Shown in pieces: positions 691 through 52,760 of a stretch of 57,936 nt of DNA. The stretch is from an uncultured delta proteobacterium (GTDB lineage Bacteria; Myxococcota_A; Polyangia; Polyangiales; Ga0077539). The stretch's first letter is position 1. Each line of letters begins with the position of its first letter. The translations under genes and the position numbers were made by a program. The stretch covers positions 1-57,936 of the forward strand of contig CAIMWA010000277.1 of NCBI GenBank assembly GCA_903845045.1. Direction: 5' to 3'. The notes beneath the pieces are model-generated. The model was not told where the DNA came from, searched no databases, and saw only the letters and a list, made by a program, of their open reading frames with translations.

Positions 691-875
691 AGGCGTGTGA
701 CATCGAAACCGCCATGGACGAGGCTGAGCGGTTCGTGGACAGGGCACGTAAAGCCTTGGCAGAGCATGCGGGCGACGCCTTTGGGCTGGCGGCCGGGTCA
801 AAAGCTACGGGCGCCCTCCGGCGGGCAAGCCTAGATCTGACCCGGGCGCTGGCCGACCTGCGCCGAGCGGAATAG
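687..875 (+). CDS. hypothetical phage protein
   Basis: ATGA overlap with previous gene, GGAGG RBS. Confidence 0.7.
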   Translation: MKACDIETAMDEAERFVDRARKALAEHAGDAFGLAAGSKATGALRRASLDLTRALADLRRAE

Positions 876-1046
876 AAAACGCCACCGTATAGCAGCGGTC
901 GGCGGGCCGGGGAAAAGGCGGGACAATCCGCTCGGTTGTGTAGAGTGACGGCGAAAAGCGCAGTACGCACGGACCCGGCAAGCCGCCCCGGCCAACATCA
1001 TTCATGGCGTTTCTGTGCGAAGCGGCGAACGAGGAAAGAGGCTGAA

Positions 1047-2120
1047 ATGGATTTCACGAACGTACACGGCGTCGATCTGCTCGCCGCCTTAGGAAGCGAC
1101 GCTGACGTGTTGGCGTCGATCCCCGAAAAGAACCGCAAAAAAGGCGTCGAGGCCGCAACCAAAGCGCTGGGCTCGATGGTGCGATCCCGGGCGGCCGGCG
1201 CCTTCAAGGCGCTGGTGCTGGGCGACTTGGAAACCTCCCTCGAGACGGCGCTCATGTGCTACGGCGACCGGCCTGCTGGCGACGCTGAAGCTGGCGATTG
1301 GGACGCCGCGGTCGACACGATGGCGGGCGACATTTGGAAGCCGTGGCTCGGCGTCTTGAGCGCGAAGTGGCTGGCCGACCACGGCAAGACCGCGCTGCAC
1401 CTGCCGTCCCAGTGCCATGCCCTGGCTGCCCAGTTTGGCGCCGAGATGTATGACACCGTTGTCGCCCCGCACGCCCCTGCGCTGTTCGCGGCGCTCGGCG
1501 TGACTTCTGAAGCCCTCGCCGCCCACTGCGCCCCGGCCCCCGAGCCCAAAGTCGAGATTGCCGCGCCGACCGCCGCCGAGATCGAAGACGCCGGGCGGAA
1601 GGGCATGGTCCATCTCGTCGCTCTCGCCAAACCCTGGACCGACGAGTACGACGCTTACGAGCAATACACCTTTTTCGAGGGGCTCGTCGCCGGCCCAGAT
1701 CCTGTGTCAGGTACAGCCCCCGACCTCGTACTCAAGTGGGCGAAGTCTGCTGGCCCCGGCGTGACCGGCGACGATATCGCCGCGTGGATGCTGCACGAGT
1801 TTAACGAAGTGCCGTTCGGCGCCCCCGTCCCCGAGCTTCCGAAACAGCCCCTGGCCCCGCCGCCGGTTTCTAAGCGCAGCCGGGCCAAGGCTGACGGCCC
1901 TGATTTTGCGGCCTTCGTCGACCGGATATCAGGACTGTCCATCACTGATCACCAGATGGCTGAAGCCTTCGCTTGCTCCCGGGCGCAGATCAGTAATTTC
2001 CGATCGGGTAAAGCCCGCTGGACGCCGACCGACGAAGTGCGCGAATACGTGGCGAGGCTCTGCGAAGACCGCGCCGCCGGGCTCCAACTGGTGGCCGAGG
2101 AACTGCGGGGGGCCATGTAA
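1047..2120 (+). CDS. hypothetical protein with C-terminal HTH-like segment
   Basis: Start MDFTNV after GAGG; C-terminal ITDHQMAEAFACSRAQISNFRSGK resembles an XRE HTH. Confidence 0.65.
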   Translation: MDFTNVHGVDLLAALGSDADVLASIPEKNRKKGVEAATKALGSMVRSRAAGAFKALVLGDLETSLETALMCYGDRPAGDAEAGDWDAAVDTMAGDIWKPWLGVLSAKWLADHGKTALHLPSQCHALAAQFGAEMYDTVVAPHAPALFAALGVTSEALAAHCAPAPEPKVEIAAPTAAEIEDAGRKGMVHLVALAKPWTDEYDAYEQYTFFEGLVAGPDPVSGTAPDLVLKWAKSAGPGVTGDDIAAWMLHEFNEVPFGAPVPELPKQPLAPPPVSKRSRAKADGPDFAAFVDRISGLSITDHQMAEAFACSRAQISNFRSGKARWTPTDEVREYVARLCEDRAAGLQLVAEELRGAM

Positions 2121-2311
2121 TGGCGTTCCTGACCGAAGACCAAGCGGCGCTGAAATGGTGCCCGAAATCGCCAGCGGACGCGGATAGCGGGGGTTGCATA
2201 GCGAGCGACTGCATGGCCTGGAGGAGCGGTCCTGACGTGTTCCGTGAGACGCCCGGGGGCTGCGAGCGGATACCGAGGGGCTATTGCGGGGCGTTCGGAA
2301 AACCGAGCTAA
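2120..2311 (+). CDS. small Cys-rich hypothetical protein
   Basis: TAATG coupling; KWCP, CIASDCMAWR, GYCG pattern. Confidence 0.7.
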   Translation: MAFLTEDQAALKWCPKSPADADSGGCIASDCMAWRSGPDVFRETPGGCERIPRGYCGAFGKPS

Positions 2312-2315
2312 ACGG

Positions 2316-2855
2316 ATGACCCTCGTCGTCGGCATCGATCCAGGCTTGTCAGGCGCGCTCGCCCTGTGGGATGGCGCCACCCTCGACATCGTCGACATGC
2401 CGACGACAGTCCGCCGTATGTCAAAGAAAGACCGGATCGATCTCGACATGGCCGGCCTCAACGCTATCGTGTGCGGCTTTTGGTCGCGGGGCGTCGGGCT
2501 GGTCGTGATCGAGCGGGTCGGCGGCATCGCAAAACAATCGGCCTCCGCCAGCTTTAATTTCGGCTACGCCTGCGGGCCGCTGGCGATGGCCTGCGTCTGC
2601 CACGGCTTGCGTCATGAGTTGGTGCCGGCGCTGACCTGGAAGGGCTTTATGAGCGTCCGAGGCAAGCGGGCGTCGGCCGTCGGTGGCGAAGCCACAAAGG
2701 CCGAACGCGACACCGCGATCCTTGAGGCTGGGATCGCGGTGTTTGGCCGAAGGCCCGAGTTCCACGGGCCGCGGGGTGGACTGAAGATCGATCGCGTCGA
2801 AGCAGCGTTGATCGCTGAATACGGAAGGCGTCTTATCTTAGGGGGGAAAACATGA
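2316..2855 (+). CDS. RuvC-like Holliday junction resolvase
   Basis: VVGIDPGLSGALA, VVIERV, SASFNFG, VPALTWK, DRVEAALIAEYG. Confidence 0.88.
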   Translation: MTLVVGIDPGLSGALALWDGATLDIVDMPTTVRRMSKKDRIDLDMAGLNAIVCGFWSRGVGLVVIERVGGIAKQSASASFNFGYACGPLAMACVCHGLRHELVPALTWKGFMSVRGKRASAVGGEATKAERDTAILEAGIAVFGRRPEFHGPRGGLKIDRVEAALIAEYGRRLILGGKT

Positions 2856-3541
2856 GCGTTGAATACAAGCCTACCAACCCGAAAGACAGTGTCGGGGTGA
2901 AAAAAGTCCCGTTCTCGACGGTCCCGATGCCAGTCATCGCTGAGGTCGGCCTTGCGATGCTTGAGGGGGCGCGCAAGTACGGCCGCCACAATTACAGAGA
3001 CGGCGGGGTGTTGGCGAGCGTCTACTTTGATGCCGCGCTGCGGCACCTGACGGCGTGGTGGGAGGGCGAAGACCTTGACCCCGAGAGCGGCTTGTCGCAC
3101 ATCACCAAGGCCATCGCTTCGTTGGTGGTGCTGCGCGACGCCATGAGGCAGGGGGTGCTGGTCGACGATCGGCCGCCGGCCTGTTCCGCCGGGTGGGTGG
3201 AGCGCTTGAACGCGAAGGCTGCGGAGATCGTCGAGCGCTACCCGGACGCCAAACCCCCCTACACACAGGCCGCGTGCAAGAGTCCGTGGACGCCAGCGCA
3301 AGAGCAGGCGATGCTCGACGCCTTCGAAGAGGGCCGGGAGTTTGAAATCGCTGAGCGTGCACGTGTCGACCGTGCTTTCAGCCCCACTATGGACGCTGCG
3401 CGCCCGGCCTCCCCAGTGTCGCCGACCTCAGAGTTGTCAGCGGGCCAGCGTTTCGAGACCGAGGCGTTGAAGCCTGCGGCCAACGCCTCTTTTGTCGGCG
3501 GCGATGAGTGCGGAACTCCGATGTGCCGCGCGGAGGCATGA
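2852..3541 (+). CDS. dATP/dGTP diphosphohydrolase domain protein (DUF5664-like)
   Basis: NPKDSVGVKK, GARKYGRHNYR, YFDAALRHLTAWWEGEDLDPESGLSHI. Confidence 0.85.
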   Translation: MSVEYKPTNPKDSVGVKKVPFSTVPMPVIAEVGLAMLEGARKYGRHNYRDGGVLASVYFDAALRHLTAWWEGEDLDPESGLSHITKAIASLVVLRDAMRQGVLVDDRPPACSAGWVERLNAKAAEIVERYPDAKPPYTQAACKSPWTPAQEQAMLDAFEEGREFEIAERARVDRAFSPTMDAARPASPVSPTSELSAGQRFETEALKPAANASFVGGDECGTPMCRAEA

Positions 3542-3542
3542 C

Positions 3543-3848
3543 ATGGGCCGCGCGACGGAGGCTGACCTCTCGAGCCTTGAGTTGACCTTGTCGGACCTCG
3601 CCGAAAAGTACGGGGTGTGCATGTGGACGGCAGGGCATTGGCGTCGGGCGTGGAAGCGAGAGAAAAATCTGGATCGCGCGTATCGGCGCGTAGACGACGC
3701 AGCGCTGAAAGCGCTTCACGCCAAAGGCAAATCTGACGGAGAGATAGGGCGGATTTTAGGGCACGCCAGCGGCACCATACGCCACGCGCGTAAGCGGCTC
3801 GGCCTGCCGCCGCACTTCGCTCCGGGGACACGACGCGCTAAAGCCTGA
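3543..3848 (+). CDS. HTH DNA-binding protein
   Basis: Two HTH-like segments (LSDLAEKYGV; GKSDGEIGRILG...IRHARKRLGL); GGAGG upstream. Confidence 0.65.
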   Translation: MGRATEADLSSLELTLSDLAEKYGVCMWTAGHWRRAWKREKNLDRAYRRVDDAALKALHAKGKSDGEIGRILGHASGTIRHARKRLGLPPHFAPGTRRAKA

Positions 3849-3858
3849 ACACTAAACC

Positions 3859-4107
3859 ATGGGGGTGGTAATGTTTGGTCTACCGGTATCCGCGAACTCT
3901 AATCCAGTCATCGTGCACTTGAGCCCGCGCGCTCACACAGTCCTCGCCGACGGCGTTCCGCTGTTGACTGTGGCGCCCGGTGTATCACGGGCGTATGCGG
4001 CCACGGCCAGCGCTCTCGTCCTCGAGATGCTGCACTCCCGGCCCGACGTGGCCGCCGCGCTAGCCGCCCTGGCCGTCCTGTCTGCGCAAAGCCGCGCCCA
4101 CGGATGA
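3859..4107 (+). CDS. hypothetical protein
   Basis: Fills gap; ATGA overlap with helicase. Confidence 0.5.
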   Translation: MGVVMFGLPVSANSNPVIVHLSPRAHTVLADGVPLLTVAPGVSRAYAATASALVLEMLHSRPDVAAALAALAVLSAQSRAHG

Positions 4108-7242: not shown

Positions 7243-8063
7243 AGATGTCGAGCATTATGAGGGACAGCCAAGTTACCGACGATTGGCTGCGTCAAGTCAT
7301 CGCCGCCAATCCGCCCACACGCCAGCCTGACACGACAGGCAAGACGCCCGGTTGCATCACGACCGGCCCCGTGCGACTGGCGTTTTGCGAGCACCCGATC
7401 GGCGGCTTGCTGCGGCCGAACGCTCCGAAGCCCGACCAGTCGGGCAAGGTCAAGAACCCGAATTTCAACACCTCGGTGCTGTTCCCGCCGGGTTTGGATT
7501 TCACCCCGATCGTCGGCCTCTACAACGAAGCCCTCCAGAAGTGGTGGAGTGACAAGTACGACGCGGGCACCCGTGAATACCTCGGCCTGCACAGCCCGTT
7601 TCGCGACCAGAAGGAAAAGGCGGAGTACAAGGGGTACACGCCGGGCGGCATCCTCATGCAATGCTCGTCGCAGTTCAAGCCGACTGTCGTCGACTCCGCG
7701 ATGAACCCGATCGTCGACGAGACCCAGCTTTACGCCGGCATCTGGGCGATCTTGTTGCTCAACGTCTATGCCTATGGCCGCAACCCGCCGCAGCCCAAAA
7801 AGGGCATCGGCTTCGGTCTCCAGGCCGTCATGAAGCTGGACAACGACACGAAACTCGGCGGCGGCGGCGCGGTCGACGCGAAGACAGCGTTCGGCGGCGT
7901 CAACGTCGTGGCGCCCACTGTCAACCCGGCTTCTCTGTTCGGCGCGGCCGGTGGCGCCCCGCCCCCGCCGCCCGCACAACAGGCTCCGAGCCCGTGCTTC
8001 GTCTGCGGGTCGCCGATGGCGGCCGGCGCGGCGGTGTGCGGCGTCTGCGGCTCTCCGCGTTGA
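7239..8063 (+). CDS. DUF2815 ssDNA-binding protein with C-terminal zinc ribbon
   Basis: GPVRLAF, SPFRD, KPTVVD, YAG, KKGIGFGLQAVMK; located between DUF2800 and polymerase. Confidence 0.85.
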   Translation: MKMSSIMRDSQVTDDWLRQVIAANPPTRQPDTTGKTPGCITTGPVRLAFCEHPIGGLLRPNAPKPDQSGKVKNPNFNTSVLFPPGLDFTPIVGLYNEALQKWWSDKYDAGTREYLGLHSPFRDQKEKAEYKGYTPGGILMQCSSQFKPTVVDSAMNPIVDETQLYAGIWAILLLNVYAYGRNPPQPKKGIGFGLQAVMKLDNDTKLGGGGAVDAKTAFGGVNVVAPTVNPASLFGAAGGAPPPPPAQQAPSPCFVCGSPMAAGAAVCGVCGSPR

Positions 8064-8228
8064 GAGGCCGCGGGTACGGCAGCGAGGCGGCGTTTCTCCC
8101 GCCGCTTCGTCTTCGCCAGCGGGCTGTGCGCTTGCTTGTAAGCGCGCAGGTCGCACGAGCCCTGCGGTCCGAGCAGCACCGCGATCCGAAGTACCGCCAG
8201 GTCGGTCGACCAAAGCCCTAGGGGAGAG

Positions 8229-10361
8229 ATGGCCGTGTTGAGAGCCCACTTGGATTTCGAGACGGCCAGTCCCCAGCCGCTGGGCGCCCAGGCGAGCGTC
8301 GGGGTGTATCGGTACGCCGAAGACCCTGACACTCGCATCTGGGGCTTCTGCTGGCGCCTGGGCAGCGGGGGAGTATTTCCCTGGTATCCAGGCGACCCGG
8401 CGCCCCGCCCGCTGCTCGACCACATTGACATGGGCCGCACGATCGTCGCCCACAACGCGCCGTTCGAGTTCAACATCTGGAACACTGTCCTCCCTCGGAT
8501 CGAGCCGACATGGCCGCGCCTGTTGCTCGGCCAGATGAACTGCACGATGGCTCGGGCGATGGCTCTCGGACTGCCCGCCGACCTTGACAGGCTCGGGAAA
8601 GTGCTCGGGACAGCGAACACGAAAGACGACTACGGCCATAGCCTTATGCTGAAAATGGCGAAGCCGCGCGGGAACGACATTGAGGGGGGCTACCTGTGGC
8701 ACGACGACTCCGTCGACATTAAGTATCTTATCGAAACGTATTGCGCCCGTGACGTTCTCACTGAGTGCGACATCGACGCTAAGTTACCAGATTTGTCGCC
8801 GAGTGAACGCGATCTTTGGGATATCGACCAAAAGATAAATATGCGCGGCGTTGGGATAGACGTGGTGTTTGCCCGCCGCGCCGTCGCGCTGGGCGATATA
8901 TCCGTAAAGTTCGCTGACCAAGAAATGCGGCGGTTGACAAACAACCAAGTCAGTCGCTGCACAGAGGTCGCAAAGATCGTCGCGTGGATCCAGAGTCGCG
9001 GCCTACCGGCTACGACGCTACAGAAGCACGAAATCGACGAGTATATCGCTCTCGCTGAGTTCACCGAAGACGACGCCGTGAGGCAAGTCGTACAGTTGCG
9101 GCAAGCGGCGGCAAAAACTTCGACGGCAAAGTACGCGAAGATGATGGCGTGCGCCAACAGCGACGGTAGGGTGCGCGGGATGCTGCAATACCACGGCGCC
9201 CGGACGGGCCGGTGGTGCCTAACAGGCGATCACGAGGTGCTGACGAGGGAAGGCTGGTGCCGGCTTGATGAATATTGGGGCGGAGCGATAGCGTGTTGGA
9301 GCCCTGACGGCGCTATGGCCTTCCTCGACTCCGAGGCTAATGTTTTTGAGTTCTCCGGGGAACTCACCCGGCTGCACAACTTCCGGATAGACCAGACTTC
9401 TACTGACGACCATCGGATGCCGGTGTTTCCGCGCTCGGATCGAGGCGGTAATTTCACGGTACGTACGGCGGCGTCGGTGAAACAGTACGACCGTATCCCC
9501 GTCACAGGGATGATGGCCCGTCCTGCCGGCATTCCGGAAGTCATTCTGCGGATATTAGTGATGGTGCAGGCTGACGCGCACTACCACGCGGACGGAGTTC
9601 GTTTCTCCTTCAAGAAGCCGAGGAAAATATTCAGGTGCGAGCATTTGCTTCGCGCCGCCCGGATAGGCTATAAAAAGTACAGCAAGCACAGCGACGGGCG
9701 CACTTCCATAGAGATCGTCAGGAAGAACGTCCCACATTGGCTAGCCGTATTTAAGGACAAGAAATTCAGATGGGACTGGTTGGACTGCGACGCCGACGTG
9801 TTCTTCGAGGAGTTGGCGCTGTGGGACGGTTCGCAGTGCGGCCCGAAAAGCGTTCAGTACGGCACTAAGGTCAGGAGTAACGCAGACTTCGTGCAGGCGT
9901 TGGCTCACACTTCGGGGCGCGCTGTGCGCATGAGCGTAAGGACTAGCGCGGAGCGAGGCAAATCCCACTGGTCAGACATGTACGTTGCCAGCGTCTGGGA
10001 CAACCCGGGGCCTGCGGAATTGCGGTTTGCCGGAAAGAGCGCGGCGACTTCGACGAAGGTTCCGTACACCGGCCTAGTGTACTGCCCGACTACGCCGACA
10101 GGGTTTTTCTTAGTGCGTCGCGGCGAGACTGCGTGGGTGACGGGAAATTCAGGGAGGGGTCCGCAGCCACAGAATTACCCTCGTTTTGACCACGAGAACG
10201 CCGACGACGTTGCACAAGTCGAAGCGCTGCGCCTCGCGTTGCTGTCAGCGAAGCCTGTTGCCGTCGTTCACGAAGAGTTACGCGCGGCTTACGGGCCAGT
10301 CCTTCCGCTTTTAGCGAAGGCGCTGCGCAGCACATTTGTCACGCAATCCGGGGGGATGTGA
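8229..10361 (+). CDS. Family A DNA polymerase, N-terminal part (3'-5' exonuclease + thumb), intein-containing
   Basis: HLDFET, VAHNAPFE, YCARDV exonuclease motifs; STAKY; HGARTGRW|intein|SGRGPQPQNYPR. Confidence 0.92.
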   Translation: MAVLRAHLDFETASPQPLGAQASVGVYRYAEDPDTRIWGFCWRLGSGGVFPWYPGDPAPRPLLDHIDMGRTIVAHNAPFEFNIWNTVLPRIEPTWPRLLLGQMNCTMARAMALGLPADLDRLGKVLGTANTKDDYGHSLMLKMAKPRGNDIEGGYLWHDDSVDIKYLIETYCARDVLTECDIDAKLPDLSPSERDLWDIDQKINMRGVGIDVVFARRAVALGDISVKFADQEMRRLTNNQVSRCTEVAKIVAWIQSRGLPATTLQKHEIDEYIALAEFTEDDAVRQVVQLRQAAAKTSTAKYAKMMACANSDGRVRGMLQYHGARTGRWCLTGDHEVLTREGWCRLDEYWGGAIACWSPDGAMAFLDSEANVFEFSGELTRLHNFRIDQTSTDDHRMPVFPRSDRGGNFTVRTAASVKQYDRIPVTGMMARPAGIPEVILRILVMVQADAHYHADGVRFSFKKPRKIFRCEHLLRAARIGYKKYSKHSDGRTSIEIVRKNVPHWLAVFKDKKFRWDWLDCDADVFFEELALWDGSQCGPKSVQYGTKVRSNADFVQALAHTSGRAVRMSVRTSAERGKSHWSDMYVASVWDNPGPAELRFAGKSAATSTKVPYTGLVYCPTTPTGFFLVRRGETAWVTGNSGRGPQPQNYPRFDHENADDVAQVEALRLALLSAKPVAVVHEELRAAYGPVLPLLAKALRSTFVTQSGGM
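9216..10148 (+). mobile_element. Intein 1 (311 aa) with in-frame LAGLIDADG-type endonuclease
   Basis: Starts CLTGDHEVLTREGW, block B STDDHRM, ends VYCPTTPTGFFLVRR...VTGN followed by Ser; removal restores TGRWSGRG; VMVQADA and ELALWDG resemble dodecapeptide motifs. Confidence 0.9.
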
Positions 10362-12265
10362 TGTTTGTCGGCGGGGACTTTTCAAACATCGAAGGCCGCG
10401 TCAACGTGTGGCTGGCTGGCGACACTTGGAAACTCGATGCTTTCCGGGCTTACGACGCTGGGCTTGGCCCTGACCTTTACCGAGTGGCGTACGCGAAAGC
10501 GTTTAACGCCTTGGTCGAAAGCGTCACCAAGCCGCAGCGCCAGATCGGGAAGGTCATGGAACTGGCCTGTTTTTCACGAGGCGAACTCGTCCTTACCGAC
10601 CAAGGGCTAGTCCCCATAGAGCACGTTACCCTAGAGCAACGTGTCTGGGACGGGGTTGATTTTGTTAGTCATGATGGGGTAGTGTCGAAGGGTATCAAGG
10701 AGGTCATTCGGTATGACGGGCTCACGGCCACCCCAGATCACCTCGTTTGGACGGAAGGACAGGCCAGTCCGGTTCCCCTTGGCCTCGCCGCCGCCCGCCG
10801 TCTCCACCTCCTTAAATCCGGAGCAGGTGGGAACCCGGTACGGGTGGGTGGAGATTACGGCTCCCGAGCGCAGATACACGAGGTCGAAGTGGAGGGATGC
10901 CTACGTCGCAGTCCGTTGCGCGGGGTGCGGCCGAGAGGGATGGATGCTCTTAGGGAACTTGACGAGCGGCAAAAGCAAAGGATGCCAAGCGTGCTCTCAG
11001 GCGAGAAAAGCGCCTCTGTGGCTGGACCGGCGCGTGACCTCGATGCGCCAGCGTTGTACGAACCCGAAAGACTCGGGGTGGGAGAACTACGGGGGGCGCG
11101 GGATCGAGTTCAAGTTTGCCTCGGTGACCGAGGGCGCTTTGTGGGTGATGCACAATCTCGGTCTGCACCGGGACAAAGACCTGGACCGGGTGGACAACAA
11201 CGGCCATTACGAGGCGGGGAACCTTCGGTACGCCACGAGGTCGCAAAACATGTACAACTGCCGCCTTACGAAGTTGACGGAAGAGGACTTCGAGTGGGCG
11301 CAAACTGTGAGCCCGCTGGGGGTGTCGAAGACTCGGCAATACATGGCTCGGGGTTACACGAGGGATTGCATTCTTGGCGTGGCCGCGATGGCGGTGATCG
11401 AGAAGCGGAAGAACTGGAAAAATATCAAGGCGCGATTGGAAAAGTTGCTGCCTACGACATCCTGAACGCCGGCCCGCGCAACCGCTTCACCGTCTCCGAC
11501 GTGCTCGTCCATAACTGCGGCTACCAGGGCGGCATCGGCGCCTTCATGAAAATGGCCGCCGACTACGGCGTGACGCCCTCGATGCTTGGAAAAGCCGTGT
11601 ACGAGGCGGCTGACAGCGCGACCTGGGACGCTACTGAAGCGCTGTACGAACACGCGCCCGACAAGTACGGCCTTGGGCCTAAAGAGTGGACGGCCATTAA
11701 GATCATTGTCAAAGGCTGGCGGGCCGCGCACCCGAAGACCGTGGCCTCCTGGTGGGCGTATCAGAATGCGGCGATTGAAGCGGTTGGGATGCCGGGCCAA
11801 GTCGTCGGAGTCGAAGATGTCGCCGTAAGCTACTACTCGACGGGCGAGTATCTGTTCTGTTTGCTGCCGAGCGGTCGCTGCATTTCGTACGCGCAACCGT
11901 ACATCAAAGTTGAAGAAGTGACGCGCGTCAACAAGGAGGGCGAAGAGTACACCCGCATGGAGTCGAGCGTGCGGTTCTGGGGTATCCACAGCGTTTCAAA
12001 GCAGTGGACGTGCCTCGGCCTGTACGGCGGCCTCCAGTGCGAGAACATCGTCCAAGCCGTGTCCCGCGACATCATGGTTGAGGCCATGAAGCGCGTCGAG
12101 CGCGCGGGATACCCTTTGATCCTGACCGTCCACGACGAGCTTCTCGCCGAGCATCCGAACCCTGACGTTGAAGAGTTTGAGCGGCTGATGTCTGTCGTCC
12201 CGTCCTGGTGCGCGGGGTTACCGCTGGCTGTGAAAGCGTGGACCGATACGAGGTACGTGAAATGA
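10358..12265 (+). CDS. Family A DNA polymerase, C-terminal catalytic part, intein-containing
   Basis: Motif A GGDFSNIEGR, motif B RQIGKVMELA|intein|CGYQGG, ENIVQAVSRD, motif C TVHDE; start GTG 10358 or ATG 10361. Confidence 0.93.
   Translation: MMFVGGDFSNIEGRVNVWLAGDTWKLDAFRAYDAGLGPDLYRVAYAKAFNALVESVTKPQRQIGKVMELACFSRGELVLTDQGLVPIEHVTLEQRVWDGVDFVSHDGVVSKGIKEVIRYDGLTATPDHLVWTEGQASPVPLGLAAARRLHLLKSGAGGNPVRVGGDYGSRAQIHEVEVEGCLRRSPLRGVRPRGMDALRELDERQKQRMPSVLSGEKSASVAGPARDLDAPALYEPERLGVGELRGARDRVQVCLGDRGRFVGDAQSRSAPGQRPGPGGQQRPLRGGEPSVRHEVAKHVQLPPYEVDGRGLRVGANCEPAGGVEDSAIHGSGLHEGLHSWRGRDGGDREAEELEKYQGAIGKVAAYDILNAGPRNRFTVSDVLVHNCGYQGGIGAFMKMAADYGVTPSMLGKAVYEAADSATWDATEALYEHAPDKYGLGPKEWTAIKIIVKGWRAAHPKTVASWWAYQNAAIEAVGMPGQVVGVEDVAVSYYSTGEYLFCLLPSGRCISYAQPYIKVEEVTRVNKEGEEYTRMESSVRFWGIHSVSKQWTCLGLYGGLQCENIVQAVSRDIMVEAMKRVERAGYPLILTVHDELLAEHPNPDVEEFERLMSVVPSWCAGLPLAVKAWTDTRYVK
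10568..11515 (+). mobile_element. Intein 2 (316 aa) inserted in polymerase motif B
   Basis: Starts CFSRGELVLTDQG, block B TATPDHLVW, ends YDILNAGPRNRFTVSDVLVHN followed by Cys; removal restores ELACGYQGG. Confidence 0.92.
10713..11465 (+). CDS. HNH homing endonuclease nested in the +1 frame of intein 2
   Basis: AAGGAGGT at 10697-10704, 8 nt before ATG; VGTRYGWV, CAGCG...SKGCQAC, SMRQRCTNP...YGGRGI, DLDRVDNNGHYEAGNLRYATRSQNMYN. Confidence 0.85.
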   Translation: MTGSRPPQITSFGRKDRPVRFPLASPPPAVSTSLNPEQVGTRYGWVEITAPERRYTRSKWRDAYVAVRCAGCGREGWMLLGNLTSGKSKGCQACSQARKAPLWLDRRVTSMRQRCTNPKDSGWENYGGRGIEFKFASVTEGALWVMHNLGLHRDKDLDRVDNNGHYEAGNLRYATRSQNMYNCRLTKLTEEDFEWAQTVSPLGVSKTRQYMARGYTRDCILGVAAMAVIEKRKNWKNIKARLEKLLPTTS

Positions 12266-12579
12266 CCGAAGACCAGAAAACCCTGGTTCGGACTCTGCGC
12301 AGGGCCGGGGTTAACCCGCTATCCATCGCGTTCGACAACAACCTCCCCTACGCGGAAGTGTATTGCTTGGCGGAAGACGACGATAAGCGCAGGAAAGAAC
12401 GAGTCAAAACGGAGCGTGCGGCACACGACGCAGCCAAATCGGCGGCTAAGGCCGCAGAGGCTTCCGCCGATGTCGCAGCCTTAGCCTCCGTGAAAGCCAA
12501 CGAGAAAGCGGAGTACGAGCGCCTGCGAGGACTCGGATCGTCAAGTCTTGACGAAGCAGCCACGTGGCGGTGCAGGTGA
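12262..12579 (+). CDS. hypothetical protein
   Basis: ATGA overlap with polymerase stop, GAGG RBS. Confidence 0.6.
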   Translation: MTEDQKTLVRTLRRAGVNPLSIAFDNNLPYAEVYCLAEDDDKRRKERVKTERAAHDAAKSAAKAAEASADVAALASVKANEKAEYERLRGLGSSSLDEAATWRCR

Positions 12580-13466
12580 CGGCGTACTACAACGAGATTG
12601 ATCCGTTCGCCGCCGATTGGTTGCGCAACCTGATCATGGGCGGTCTGCTGCCCGAAGGCGATGTCGACGAGCGCGACATTTGGGACGTTTGCCCGGAGGA
12701 TTTACGTGGATACACTCAGTGCCATTTCTTCGCCGGCATCGGCGGCTGGCCCCTCGCCCTTAGCCTCGCCGACTGGCCCGTCGACCGCCCCGTGTGGACC
12801 GGCTCATGCCCTTGCCAACCTTTCTCCCAGGCAGGCGCGAGGCGCGGGTTCGCTGACGAGCGGCACCACTGGCCCGCTCTCTATCATCTTGCCCGGGAGT
12901 GCCGTCCTCCAGTCTGCTTTGGCGAGCAAGTTGCGAGCCCAGACGGACTTGAATGGCTCGATCTTGTACAAGCTGACTTGGAAATTGCGGGTTACGCCTT
13001 CGCAGCGGTCGATATGGGCGCTGCGGGCGTCAGCGCGCCGCACATTAGACAACGACTGTGGTGGGTGGCCGACGCCAACGACGAAGTTAAAGGCGGGAGG
13101 CGAGTACAAAGACTCGGAGAAAGCGATAGCGCGAGCACTTGGCCCTCACGCCAACGACCTCCGGGATTTCGCCCACTTGGCAGGTTGGCCGACCGCGACC
13201 ACTCGGGATTGGAAGGACGGGGGTTCGGTTGGGACGGTTCCGGACGCTGGATTGCTCGGCCGGGTGTGCTGGCGGGCGCCTGGGACGACGCTGAGTGGAT
13301 CGCCTGCTCAGACGGAAAGTCCAGGCCAGTTGGCGCCGGAGTTCGTGTGTTGGCTCATGGGATACCCGGCCGTGTGGGACGCCTTCGCGGCTACGGTAAC
13401 GCCATTGTGCCGCAAGTCGGCGCGAAATTCATAAAAGCCTTTTTAGACACGGAAACCCGGCGATGA
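12564..13466 (+). CDS. C5 cytosine DNA methyltransferase, large (alpha) polypeptide
   Basis: YYNEID, HFFAGIGGW, GSCPCQPFS, GEQV, APHIRQRLWWVA, LRGYGNAIVPQV. Confidence 0.92.
   Translation: MAVQVTAYYNEIDPFAADWLRNLIMGGLLPEGDVDERDIWDVCPEDLRGYTQCHFFAGIGGWPLALSLADWPVDRPVWTGSCPCQPFSQAGARRGFADERHHWPALYHLARECRPPVCFGEQVASPDGLEWLDLVQADLEIAGYAFAAVDMGAAGVSAPHIRQRLWWVADANDEVKGGRRVQRLGESDSASTWPSRQRPPGFRPLGRLADRDHSGLEGRGFGWDGSGRWIARPGVLAGAWDDAEWIACSDGKSRPVGAGVRVLAHGIPGRVGRLRGYGNAIVPQVGAKFIKAFLDTETRR
12661..13434 (+). CDS. Putative methyltransferase small (beta) polypeptide in overlapping +1 frame
   Basis: GWPTP and GWPTATTRDWKD repeats and GQLAPEFVCWLMGYP (motif IX-like), which is missing from the main frame; true start uncertain. 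Confidence 0.7.
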   Translation: MSTSATFGTFARRIYVDTLSAISSPASAAGPSPLASPTGPSTAPCGPAHALANLSPRQARGAGSLTSGTTGPLSIILPGSAVLQSALASKLRAQTDLNGSILYKLTWKLRVTPSQRSIWALRASARRTLDNDCGGWPTPTTKLKAGGEYKDSEKAIARALGPHANDLRDFAHLAGWPTATTRDWKDGGSVGTVPDAGLLGRVCWRAPGTTLSGSPAQTESPGQLAPEFVCWLMGYPAVWDAFAATVTPLCRKSARNS

Positions 13467-51875: not shown

Positions 51876-52187
51876 ATGGAAAACATACACGGAACCATGA
51901 AAATTTACAGCGAAACCGATTGCCGTGGTCGCGGTGGGGATTTGCTATCCGTGGCACATTTCGGTTGCGACATTGAATTATTCCTTGACGCTATCGCGGC
52001 CCAAATGATGCTGCACCGCGACGTTTGGGTTGACTTAAATAATGGGCAATACCTTTCGTTCGCGTTCGTGCGAGCGTTCGCGGTATCCCCTATGCAATGG
52101 CGAAACGAGGCTATGACTTCGATTGCGCGCAAATATCCGATCGCCGAACCTGTCGAATACAAGCGTTACAGTCGCACCGGACGTTAG
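51876..52187 (+). CDS. hypothetical protein
   Basis: GGAGG RBS. Confidence 0.65.
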   Translation: MENIHGTMKIYSETDCRGRGGDLLSVAHFGCDIELFLDAIAAQMMLHRDVWVDLNNGQYLSFAFVRAFAVSPMQWRNEAMTSIARKYPIAEPVEYKRYSRTGR

Positions 52188-52257
52188 TGTGCTGTTAAAA
52201 CCAGCGCAACCATTGCGCTGGTTTTTGCGGACACACTAACGGAGGAAAACACAATGA
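52184..52257 (+). repeat. Intergenic hairpin + RBS cassette, copy 1
   Basis: TTAGTGTG..AAAACCAGCGCAA-cca-TTGCGCTGGTTTT..CACACTAACGGAGGAAAACACAATG. Confidence 0.9.
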
Positions 52258-52436: not shown

Positions 52437-52690
52437 CCATGCATGACGATTACGCATACTTTCGTGTCCTTGTCGCGCAACGCCAAATCTTGCGCGAGCA
52501 AGCTTTCGCCTTGCAAGAAAAGCTAAACACTATCACCAATTCAACCGATCGCAACGGGGTTGAATTTAACGCAACGTGGGATGCGTGGGGCGATGCTTGC
52601 GACGCCATCGCGCGTAAAAACGACGCGATTGACGCGGAATACAAAGCCGCGACAAAAATCCAATGCCATCGGGCAGGCATTGCCGCTTAG
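52433..52690 (+). CDS. hypothetical protein
   Basis: GGAGG RBS, coupled. Confidence 0.65.
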   Translation: MTMHDDYAYFRVLVAQRQILREQAFALQEKLNTITNSTDRNGVEFNATWDAWGDACDAIARKNDAIDAEYKAATKIQCHRAGIAA

Positions 52691-52760
52691 CGTACTGTTA
52701 AAACCAGCGCAATCGTTGCGCTGGTTTTTGCGAGCACACTAACGGAGGAAAACACAATGA
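52687..52760 (+). repeat. Intergenic hairpin + RBS cassette, copy 2
   Basis: Near-identical to 52184-52257. Confidence 0.9.

Follow-up and report, generated by a model that had tools for sequence, protein, structure and literature searches.

A candidate homing-endonuclease gene nested in the +1 reading frame of an intein in a phage family-A DNA polymerase

Can an intein and a separately made endonuclease be written into the same DNA in two reading frames? The question is raised by a DNA polymerase gene in a stretch of 57,936 nucleotides (nt) from an uncultured delta proteobacterium (contig CAIMWA010000277.1 of assembly GCA_903845045.1). This stretch, referred to here as the window, is one entire contig (C277) of a 685-contig genome. 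An earlier reading of the window from its letters only (the sequence-only reading) had proposed that the polymerase gene is interrupted by an intein with an HNH endonuclease hidden as an independent gene in its +1 frame. The analysis presented here leads us to favour, with a probability of roughly 0.8, a mobile class-1-type intein in motif B of a phage family-A polymerase, with a homing-endonuclease gene nested in the +1 frame rather than fused to it. The proposal of a two-product element gains support from a layout found in 70 of the 70 sources compared, from the avoidance of stop codons, from a change of the frame under selection, from a start signal, and from empty alleles and mini-inteins. 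The features needed for the argument are as follows (ORF, open reading frame; aa, amino acids; pN/pS, ratio of the proportions of nonsynonymous and synonymous differences).

10358..12265, forward strand: polymerase ORF 2, a 635-aa precursor with motifs A, B and C, split by intein 2 (DNA_pol_A, 1.1e-8; phrog_7766, 2.6e-43)
10568..11515, forward strand: intein 2, 316 codons between ...MELA and CGYQGG of motif B (C1, T55, H58, H315 and N316 invariant in 30/30; empty alleles)
10568..10870, forward strand: N-terminal splicing region (blocks A and B), the last ~52 codons of which are also read in the +1 frame (extent from the 135-aa mini-intein L069; polymerase-frame pN/pS 0.20 over codons 1–48)
10697..10704, forward strand: Shine–Dalgarno sequence AAGGAGGT in intein codons K-E-V, 8 nt before the ATG (sequence; same octamer in L086 and L087)
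10713..11465, forward strand: +1-frame ORF of 250 aa, putative homing endonuclease, I-HmuI/HNH_3-like (ORF list, PHROGs, relatives and alignment; pN/pS 0.15 in the centre)
10827..10829, forward strand: GTG, an alternative start, at the position where relatives have a conserved second Met (MVGEQYGW; alignment)
10917..10994, forward strand: CxxC...CxxC (C69, C72, C91 and C94) of the +1 protein, a presumed zinc ribbon (invariant in 30/30)
11031..11258, forward strand: conserved core of the +1 protein (R..QRC.NP....Y.NYGGRGI ... DRVDNNG.YE.GNLR....N), with D158-R159 at 11184–11189 (aligns with DH...N...N of I-HmuI, PDB code 1u3e, E 0.016)
11414..11515, forward strand: C-terminal splicing region (blocks F and G; YDIL...RFTV...LVHN), with the +1 stop inside it (sequence, alignment and mini-inteins)
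11516..11518, forward strand: Cys+1 of the C-extein (TGC; sequence)

The codons at the two junctions, GCC/TGT at 10565–10570 (Ala-1/Cys1) and CAT AAC/TGC at 11510–11518 (His-Asn/Cys+1), delimit an insert of 948 nt, or 316 codons, that splits motif B between ...RQIGKVMELA and CGYQGG; motif A of the same ORF is DFSNIEGR. The insert starts with Cys, carries TATPDH 55 residues in and ends in LVHN before a further Cys, which is present in 67/67 loci with the C junction on the contig. This motif logic is complete and supports the insert being a class-1-type intein, from which splicing would be expected; the junctions, motifs and coordinates of the sequence-only reading were all recovered. Its description of the in-frame centre as Gly/Arg-rich and devoid of an endonuclease motif likewise agrees with the composition of the 195 residues examined (G 30, R 25, E 19 and A 18 are the most frequent), for which no Pfam or PHROGs family match was obtained.

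In the window, the +1 frame becomes open at 10683 and offers no start codon before the ATG at 10713; its TGA stop (11463–11465) lies within the block-F codons, as expected from the earlier claim that it falls inside the C-terminal splicing block. Around position 11000, the polymerase frame has 691 open codons, the +1 frame 260 and the third frame 24. Since the window has a G+C content of 62%, long open off-frames require a test. In synonymous shuffles of the +1 ORF, 6.2 polymerase-frame stops are expected against 0 observed and none of 2000 shuffles was stop-free, so that the two frames open across ~750 nt are more than chance; the third frame has 10 stops against 8.9 expected. The overlaps at the two ends of the intein are doubly constrained, over ~52 codons on the N-terminal side and ~17–25 codons on the C-terminal side. 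As the +1 ORF of the window ends earlier than those of a related family of 309-aa inteins, we suggest that block F gives rise to the C-terminal tail in that family as a by-product.

The same layout is found well beyond the window. A search of phage records with the +1 protein (tblastn) gave 657 records, 13 of them with a query coverage of 80% or more. The seven best matches (41–45% identity, 94–98% coverage) each fall within a 'DNA polymerase I' gene of a Streptococcus or Gardnerella phage, and identity to the polymerase-nested matches in these phages reaches 41–49% over 94–98% of the length. In Javan113 and vB_Gva_AB1, polymerase ORFs of 965 and 967 aa carry the same insert at the same site (KIAELA/C...VHN/CGYGG), with a 257- or 267-aa ORF in the +1 frame, in stretches of only ~43% G+C. 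Scans of IMG/VR and of one genome per species added 10 and 57 loci, respectively. The hosts are mostly Bacillota, but also Gardnerella, Corynebacterium and an Actinomycetaceae genome, and metagenome-assembled genomes (MAGs) with the layout are labelled Alistipes, Spirochaetaceae, Synergistales and Desulfovibrionaceae.

Throughout the 70 sources (the window and loci L001–L069), low-GC prophages included, the frame lying one base upstream of the match stays open over its full extent, and in none (0/70) does the match lie in the polymerase frame; no in-frame HNH homologue was found. The junction pattern delimited 55 of the 70 inteins; among the 15 that it missed, the N junction is intact but has different residues in 12, the contig ends too soon in two and one (L032, Eubacterium plexicaudatum ASF492) is broken. 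Except in L032, the polymerase frame runs through the intein without interruption (69 of the 70), and a split intein or fractured gene was rejected on this count. A metagenome scan gave 11 more loci, six of which were analysed, and all six show the same layout. The closest to the window are L086 (60% identity) and L087 (55%), both of which keep the two frames open and have the same AAGGAGGT-N8-ATG. A profile search of 5.8 billion proteins returned 1507 metagenome clusters at E ≤ 0.001, the best 120 of which are unnamed, only one with a precomputed Pfam domain. Sequence comparison thus confirms the layout as real and widespread, beyond chance or assembly error.

The stop test was applied to the 63 of the 70 sources with a near-full match and at least 240 open +1 codons, which collapse to 54 distinct DNAs. 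None of the 54 contains a polymerase-frame stop, against 4.7–17.0 expected, and the third frame has as many stops as expected; for any of the 54, at most three of 2000 shuffles were stop-free. A stop arises in the polymerase frame only where a +1 codon has T as its last base and the next codon begins with AA, AG or GA, and it can therefore be avoided without amino-acid cost to the +1 protein. Tests of codon positions and of pN/pS (Nei–Gojobori method) relied on inteins of exactly 309 codons, 51 in number and 43 after removal of duplicates, which excludes the window (316), L052 (310) and both mini-inteins; the pN/pS values are from 32 pairs with 75–98.5% nucleotide identity. The most variable position is polymerase position 3 in codons 1–60 (0.45–0.57) and polymerase position 1, which is +1 position 3, in codons 61–280 (0.35–0.61); all three positions are low in codons 281–300 and position 3 is again the most variable in codons 301–309. 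For the polymerase and +1 frames, respectively, pN/pS is 0.20 and 1.15 in intein codons 1–48, 0.65 and 0.33 in the overlap at codons 49–100, 1.65 and 0.15 in codons 101–280, and 0.70 and 0.46 in the overlap at codons 281–300. These values support a change of frame in purifying selection inside the intein, with the +1 frame constrained and the polymerase frame relaxed in the centre.

The start signal of the nested ORF appears to be maintained as well. The Shine–Dalgarno sequence that had been reported 8 nt before the ATG is present as described, and an ATG is found at the same place in 44 of 47 distinct inteins; of the exceptions, L004 reads ATGATG, L068 has its ATG one codon later and L052 has lost it, leaving a downstream Met only. 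A Shine–Dalgarno core (GAGG, GGAGG or AAGGAGGT) ends 8–9 nt upstream of the ATG in 37 of the 47. The Glu codon within it is GAG in 42/44 cases, compared with 951/2358 (40%) in the exteins of the same genes, a contrast that is not an independent-sample statistic because the intein sequences are related. The Tyr codon of the window that supplies the AT of the ATG is TAT, compared with nine TAT and 30 TAC in the rest of the gene. This pattern supports retention of the Shine–Dalgarno sequence and the ATG through synonymous codon choice. Constraint of the +1 type is already seen upstream of the conserved second Met, with which the GTG of the window aligns, and this favours the first ATG as the start.

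Alleles without the element, or with only part of it, are also available. Streptococcus prophage polymerases with 86–91% extein identity lack exactly these 309 codons in 32 of the 40 matches listed. In the empty allele of phiGBSVK-A (~90% extein identity), KIAELACGYGG is uninterrupted, which places the 927-nt insertion exactly between GCT and TGT. Two mini-inteins, one of 168 aa in Streptococcus porci (L068, 2838–3341) and one of 135 aa in Streptococcus sciuri (L069, 2856–3260), are natural deletion derivatives that can still be read through in the polymerase frame. In both, what is missing is confined to the middle of the +1 ORF, and they mark a splicing core of ~100 N-terminal and ~35 C-terminal residues; such forms are rare (two of the 55 delimited inteins). 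Inteins that are 96–99% identical are found within exteins that are 75–87% identical: L049 and the loci L054, L056 and L067 have inteins that are 96% identical and flanking exteins that are 75–78% identical, and for the pairs of L033, L040 and L042 the figures are 98–99% and 81–94%. Empty alleles, mini-inteins and the discordance between intein and extein identity indicate mobility and recent transfer.

The +1 protein looks like an I-HmuI-type core behind a CxxC...CxxC ribbon. PHROGs families annotated as HNH endonucleases match it (phrog_374, 8e-19; phrog_3377, 8.6e-17). A profile of the wider family has I-HmuI (PDB code 1u3e) as its top PDB match, with a marginal E of 0.016, over D-x-x-D...N-L-R...N; elDRidtngnYE.pgNirfvtrseN aligns with vvDHkDgnkdnnlstNlrwvtqkiN, and N170, N179 and N182 are invariant in 30/30. 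I-HmuI differs in being intron-encoded and in having D-H where the +1 family has D-R. A PDB search with the close-family profile (A2) gave nothing at E ≤ 1 and one with the 92-aa core alone gave a single chance match. The ESM Atlas has no entry for the +1 protein of the window; the clusters named nearest to homologue P0068 there, I-HmuI_NUMOD-like (0.91), NUMOD1 and AP2, serve as leads only. Free-standing relatives are annotated HNH in GenBank; those of Bacillus phage B4 and Clostridium phage phiCP26F have no Pfam HNH match, so that they could not anchor the family. Overall, the +1 protein weakly resembles I-HmuI and HNH_3, from which a nuclease activity may be predicted.

A number of observations weigh against a homing endonuclease inside an intein. 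Of the 'clean' 250-aa HNH protein of the sequence-only reading, the ORF stands but the cleanliness does not: the +1 protein of the window has no Pfam or NCBIfam match, and none of the His residues is invariant among the 30 aligned members, the His in the motif quoted at the time (NNGHYE) being Asn in most relatives. HNH_3 is matched by only five of 30 relatives (best E 0.0042), and hhalign against seven true HNH_3 domains gives a probability of 0.1%. The position of the HNH general-base His is occupied by Arg (D158-R159) in 30/30 members and in 7/7 wider relatives, which makes nuclease activity uncertain. For the intein itself, curated models remain below threshold (TIGR01445 intein_Nterm, 12.5–13.1 bits against a cut-off of 24.5; Hint_2, E 0.18), and the best PDB matches are inteins at non-significant E values (Npu DnaE, 0.074; Neq Pol, 0.38). 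Polymerase-frame stops occur in the intein N-terminal region of L032 (~2829–2950), the +1 ORF of which is still open over 272 codons, and L052 lacks the first ATG. None of the runs listed as containing the stretch is an RNA run, which says nothing either way about expression. In the window, the polymerase frame is broken upstream of the intein, so that this particular copy may not yield a working enzyme.

The Arg residue invites the view that the +1 protein is real and separately made and yet no nuclease, but a sequence-specific DNA-binding or helper protein, the element being spread by another nuclease or by ordinary recombination. The uniformity of D-R for D-H, which extends to free-standing phage genes annotated HNH, is what this view explains best, together with the missing invariant His and the unmatched curated HNH models. 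It sits less well with strong purifying selection on the entire +1 ORF, with inteins that are far more alike than their exteins, with the rarity of ORF-less mini-inteins and with a best solved-structure match that is a homing endonuclease over exactly this motif. Moreover, at least one HNH-fold restriction enzyme (PacI) does without the usual His. On balance, we consider a non-nuclease rather improbable. Programmed ribosomal frameshifting, with the Shine–Dalgarno-like sequence as stimulator, could instead bring ribosomes into the +1 frame and give a fusion of N-extein, N-intein and HNH protein. The sequence does sit in a translated region, and internal Shine–Dalgarno-like sequences stimulate frameshifts in prfB and dnaX. 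However, a spacing of 8–9 nt to a conserved ATG is that of initiation, a conserved slippery motif was not seen, in the window only 30 nt of open +1 frame precede the ATG (from 10683) and the fusion would be without the C-terminal splicing region and would waste the polymerase; a frameshift product is thus quite unlikely.

A canonical intein in decay, with a once in-frame endonuclease frameshifted into a pseudogene and both frames open through GC-richness, has to contend with the same layout in matched stretches of 39–45% GC in which 8–17 stops are expected, with a +1 pN/pS of 0.15, with the absence of an in-frame ORF in all 70 homologues and with the conserved start signal. Its one attraction is that GC-rich relatives are stop-free by chance not very rarely (0.0145 for L087, 0.086 for L088 and 0.069 for L089), and we regard it as very unlikely. 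Still less can be said for a group I intron carrying a free-standing HNH gene with no intein at all. Relatives of the +1 protein do occur as free-standing phage genes, and phage polymerase genes were reportedly described as intron targets by Bonocora and Shub in 2004. Against this, an Rfam search at E ≤ 1 over 8000–12600 found no intron family (SNORD66 at E 0.46 only), the polymerase frame is kept open by selection with the intein blocks conserved in it, and the deletion derivatives are multiples of three (135 and 168 codons); an intron is extremely unlikely. Finally, two compensating indels might have displaced an in-frame HNH domain during sequencing or assembly, which the sequence-only reading had itself named as one of the results that would undo it. 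The window does come from a low-depth lake-water metagenome assembly (word depth 2–10), and its polymerase frame breaks at a run of six G. Logan contigs were available from four lake-water runs of one study, each assembled separately; X1 may be the source sample and is not counted as independent. Those of X2, X3 and X4 match the window exactly wherever they cover it, with 0 differences and 0 gaps (X2 covers 10677–11838 and X3 covers 10633–12007). The agreement of separately assembled contigs with the window excludes the two-indel artefact, and its frame relation is shared by 69 loci in isolates, MAGs and phages, so that the likelihood of such an error is vanishingly small.

In the favoured reading, that of a mobile intein with a nested endonuclease gene, ribosomes in the polymerase frame would cross ~190 codons of stop-free, unconstrained Gly/Arg-rich linker between the splicing regions, and the precursor would splice to ...MELA-CGYQGG..., restoring motif B. 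Other ribosomes would start at AAGGAGGT-N8-ATG (10697–10715) within the intein N-terminal region, and this internal initiation would yield the 250-aa product as a free protein combining a zinc ribbon with an I-HmuI-like core. The free protein would presumably cut or nick intein-less polymerase alleles at GAACTGGCC/TGCGGCTAC, with repair copying in the whole element. Splicing, initiation at 10713, DNA cleavage and its target are what we infer from the arrangement described above.

Out-of-frame endonucleases in inteins are already known, as the sequence-only reading had suspected; what is different here is the endonuclease family, the host gene, the strong conserved Shine–Dalgarno sequence, the wide host range and the complete allele series. 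A 1998 paper by Gorbalenya, 'Non-canonical inteins', is cited by both of the recent preprints on the subject and reportedly described such endonucleases. The first of these preprints describes actinophage inteins with an endonuclease VII-like gene in another frame, as well as antisense LAGLIDADG or VSR-like genes, and proposes that a free-standing endonuclease gene invaded an intein (Gosselin et al., 2025). As in the present family, a true intein carries a same-strand endonuclease ORF in another frame between its splicing blocks, and the read-through has no recognisable fold. The differences are that the endonuclease there is endonuclease VII-like and in 'frame 3', whereas here it is I-HmuI/HNH_3-like and in the +1 frame (+2 in sister lineages); that the hosts are actinophage genes, with DNA polymerase III alpha named and 'DNA polymerase' one of four host types; and that the sections consulted mention no conserved Shine–Dalgarno sequence, which is conserved here. 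The second concerns a cyanobacterial dnaX intein with an out-of-frame LAGLIDADG endonuclease (Phillips, DeSimone and Gogarten, bioRxiv 10.64898/2026.09.14.751524). It shares with our family a low ratio of nonsynonymous to synonymous substitution rates (dN/dS) in the endonuclease frame, raised in the intein frame in the overlap, and the coexistence of mini-intein and intein-free alleles; it differs in its LAGLIDADG endonuclease, its chromosomal dnaX host and its +2 frame.

Two further systems are related in a looser sense. The ShiLan domain, an HNH encoded out of frame within a mycobacteriophage DNA methylase (Arsenault et al., 2025; PMC11855218), resembles the present case in its hidden HNH-type ORF, stop-free host frame and a distribution that suggests homing. 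That domain has no splicing motifs, is thought to be retained in the protein and has a GTG start and no detectable ribosome-binding site, whereas the present family has intein blocks and a conserved strong Shine–Dalgarno sequence and ATG. In fractured genes with split inteins, the two halves can flank a free-standing endonuclease gene (Dassa et al., 2009; PMC2677866). A separate endonuclease gene thus lies between the N and C parts of the intein there too, with short coding overlaps with an intein part; the host gene, however, is in two ORFs and relies on trans-splicing, whereas here the polymerase frame crosses the endonuclease gene without a stop. We found no description in the literature of an out-of-frame HNH in a family-A polymerase intein, although the supplementary tables of Gosselin et al. 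(2025) could list related cases. In the parts available, a Jerseyvirus paper (PMC8425127) mentions inteins and homing endonucleases in general terms only, and the terms 'HNH' and 'PolA' are absent from Novikova (2016; PMC4760082).

Weaker tblastn matches revealed two lineages with a motif-B polymerase intein whose +2 frame contains a relative of the +1 protein (29–31% identity). EBPR siphovirus 2 (L073; polymerase 828–3965, nested ORF 2333–3106) has it at the same ELA/C site, and Salmonella phage SE-W109, a Jerseyvirus (L074; 1263–4091 and 2426–3169), at a site four residues upstream (GKA/C...VVHN/CELGLGY). Polymerase-frame stops number 0 against 5.5 expected in SE-W109 and 0 against 4.1 in EBPR siphovirus 2 (chances of a stop-free frame, P0, of 0.0004 and 0.0006, respectively). 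Some Jerseyvirus records annotate the intein and no nested gene. Layouts of this kind may start in GC-rich members, in which the off-frame is stop-free in 1–9% of shuffles (the P0 values given above for L087, L088 and L089). A broader proposal, which we put forward tentatively and consider doubtful, is that the motif-B inteins of phage family-A polymerases are a large, actively homing group in which a nested His-less I-HmuI-like gene occupies the +1 frame in some members (the window and the 309-aa family) and the +2 frame in others (EBPR siphovirus 2 and the Salmonella Jerseyviruses), the layout arising in GC-rich phages, spreading to low-GC hosts and being kept open by synonymous-site selection. 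If this were true, these inteins would form a natural series from free-standing endonuclease genes to intein endonucleases ('splicing first'), and an Arg-for-His variant of the HNH site would still support homing.

The remainder of the polymerase gene and its surroundings provide the context for the intein. The gene set of the window, which includes a helicase, an exonuclease, a Gp2.5-like single-strand binding protein, the family-A polymerase, a C5 methyltransferase, a primase, a tail fibre and a large terminase subunit, makes it look like phage DNA. Megablast of the polymerase gene against phages gave no match, and a DNA search of 40 related genomes gave a single 26-nt chance match, leaving the window without a close relative among those searched. 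Upstream of intein 2, the polymerase gene has the following features.

8229..10361, forward strand: family-A DNA polymerase ORF 1 (710 aa), with the exonuclease and the N-terminal polymerase part and holding intein 1 (phrog_17 DNA polymerase, E 6.5e-35)
9216..10148, forward strand: intein 1 (311 aa, RW/C...VTGN/S), wholly in frame and an internal control (other forward frames open over at most 67 codons)
10350..10363, forward strand: frame break between ORFs 1 and 2, a run of six G and then ATG TGA overlapping GTG ATG, with ORF 2 in the -1 frame (sequence; contigs of four runs, 0 gaps)

Intein 1 starts at RW/CLTGDHE, directly before the PQNYP motif of the polymerase; its centre has no family match, and the polymerase of L086 is without it. 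The 635-aa ORF represents only the C-terminal part of the polymerase, the frame changing at 10350–10361, where TCC GGG GGG ATG TGA overlaps GTG ATG TTT. A -1 shift within the G run would read SGGDVMFVGGDFS, in agreement with the contiguous homologue L086 (PGHVLMAADFA), and the six Gs are identical in the contigs of the four runs. A real frameshift mutation may account for the break, as may slippage (programmed or transcriptional) or a two-piece polymerase restarted at the TGATG overlap.

A second dual-coding gene lies downstream. A C5 cytosine methyltransferase ORF of 300 aa (12564–13466, forward strand; phrog_363, 1e-77; Pfam DNA_methylase, 4.9e-9) wholly contains a 257-aa +1 ORF (12661–13434) that matches 'DNA methyltransferase' families (phrog_1008, 5.8e-17; phrog_31772, 1.8e-13) and has two WPTP-type repeats and a 'WLMGYP..W' stretch. 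We take this stretch to resemble methyltransferase motif IX. Homologues of the nested ORF occur in 219 phage records, and in Edwardsiella phage PVN06 it is again in the +1 frame within an annotated methyltransferase; in L097, the two ORFs lie at 681–1553 and 787–1527. Synonymous shuffles of the pair give 3.8–7.5 expected partner-frame stops against 0 observed (P0 ≤ 0.005). This is possibly a methyltransferase whose target-recognition part is made as a nested second product; M.AquI, for comparison, is a two-polypeptide methyltransferase. Elsewhere in the window, the contig ends (1–118 and 57740–57935) consist of the same kind of GCC-rich repeat with a 9-nt period, which probably means that the assembly was interrupted within a single repetitive gene and that the genome, of ~58 kb, is circular or permuted. 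Two 74-nt copies (52184–52257 and 52687–52760), 92% alike and 503 nt apart, each contain a hairpin followed by GGAGG and ATG.

Canonical inteins combine splicing and homing in one polypeptide, and an overlapping separate gene bears on how inteins acquire endonucleases and on the separate evolution of homing and splicing. The present family is an unusually clean and large example, with a strong internal ribosome-binding site written into intein codons and a measurable rule by which the host frame is held open. Since empty, full and mini alleles are present in sequenced phage and prophage genomes, some of them from cultured bacteria, the proposal is directly testable. Annotation pipelines call these polymerases as single long genes and overlook the gene nested within them.

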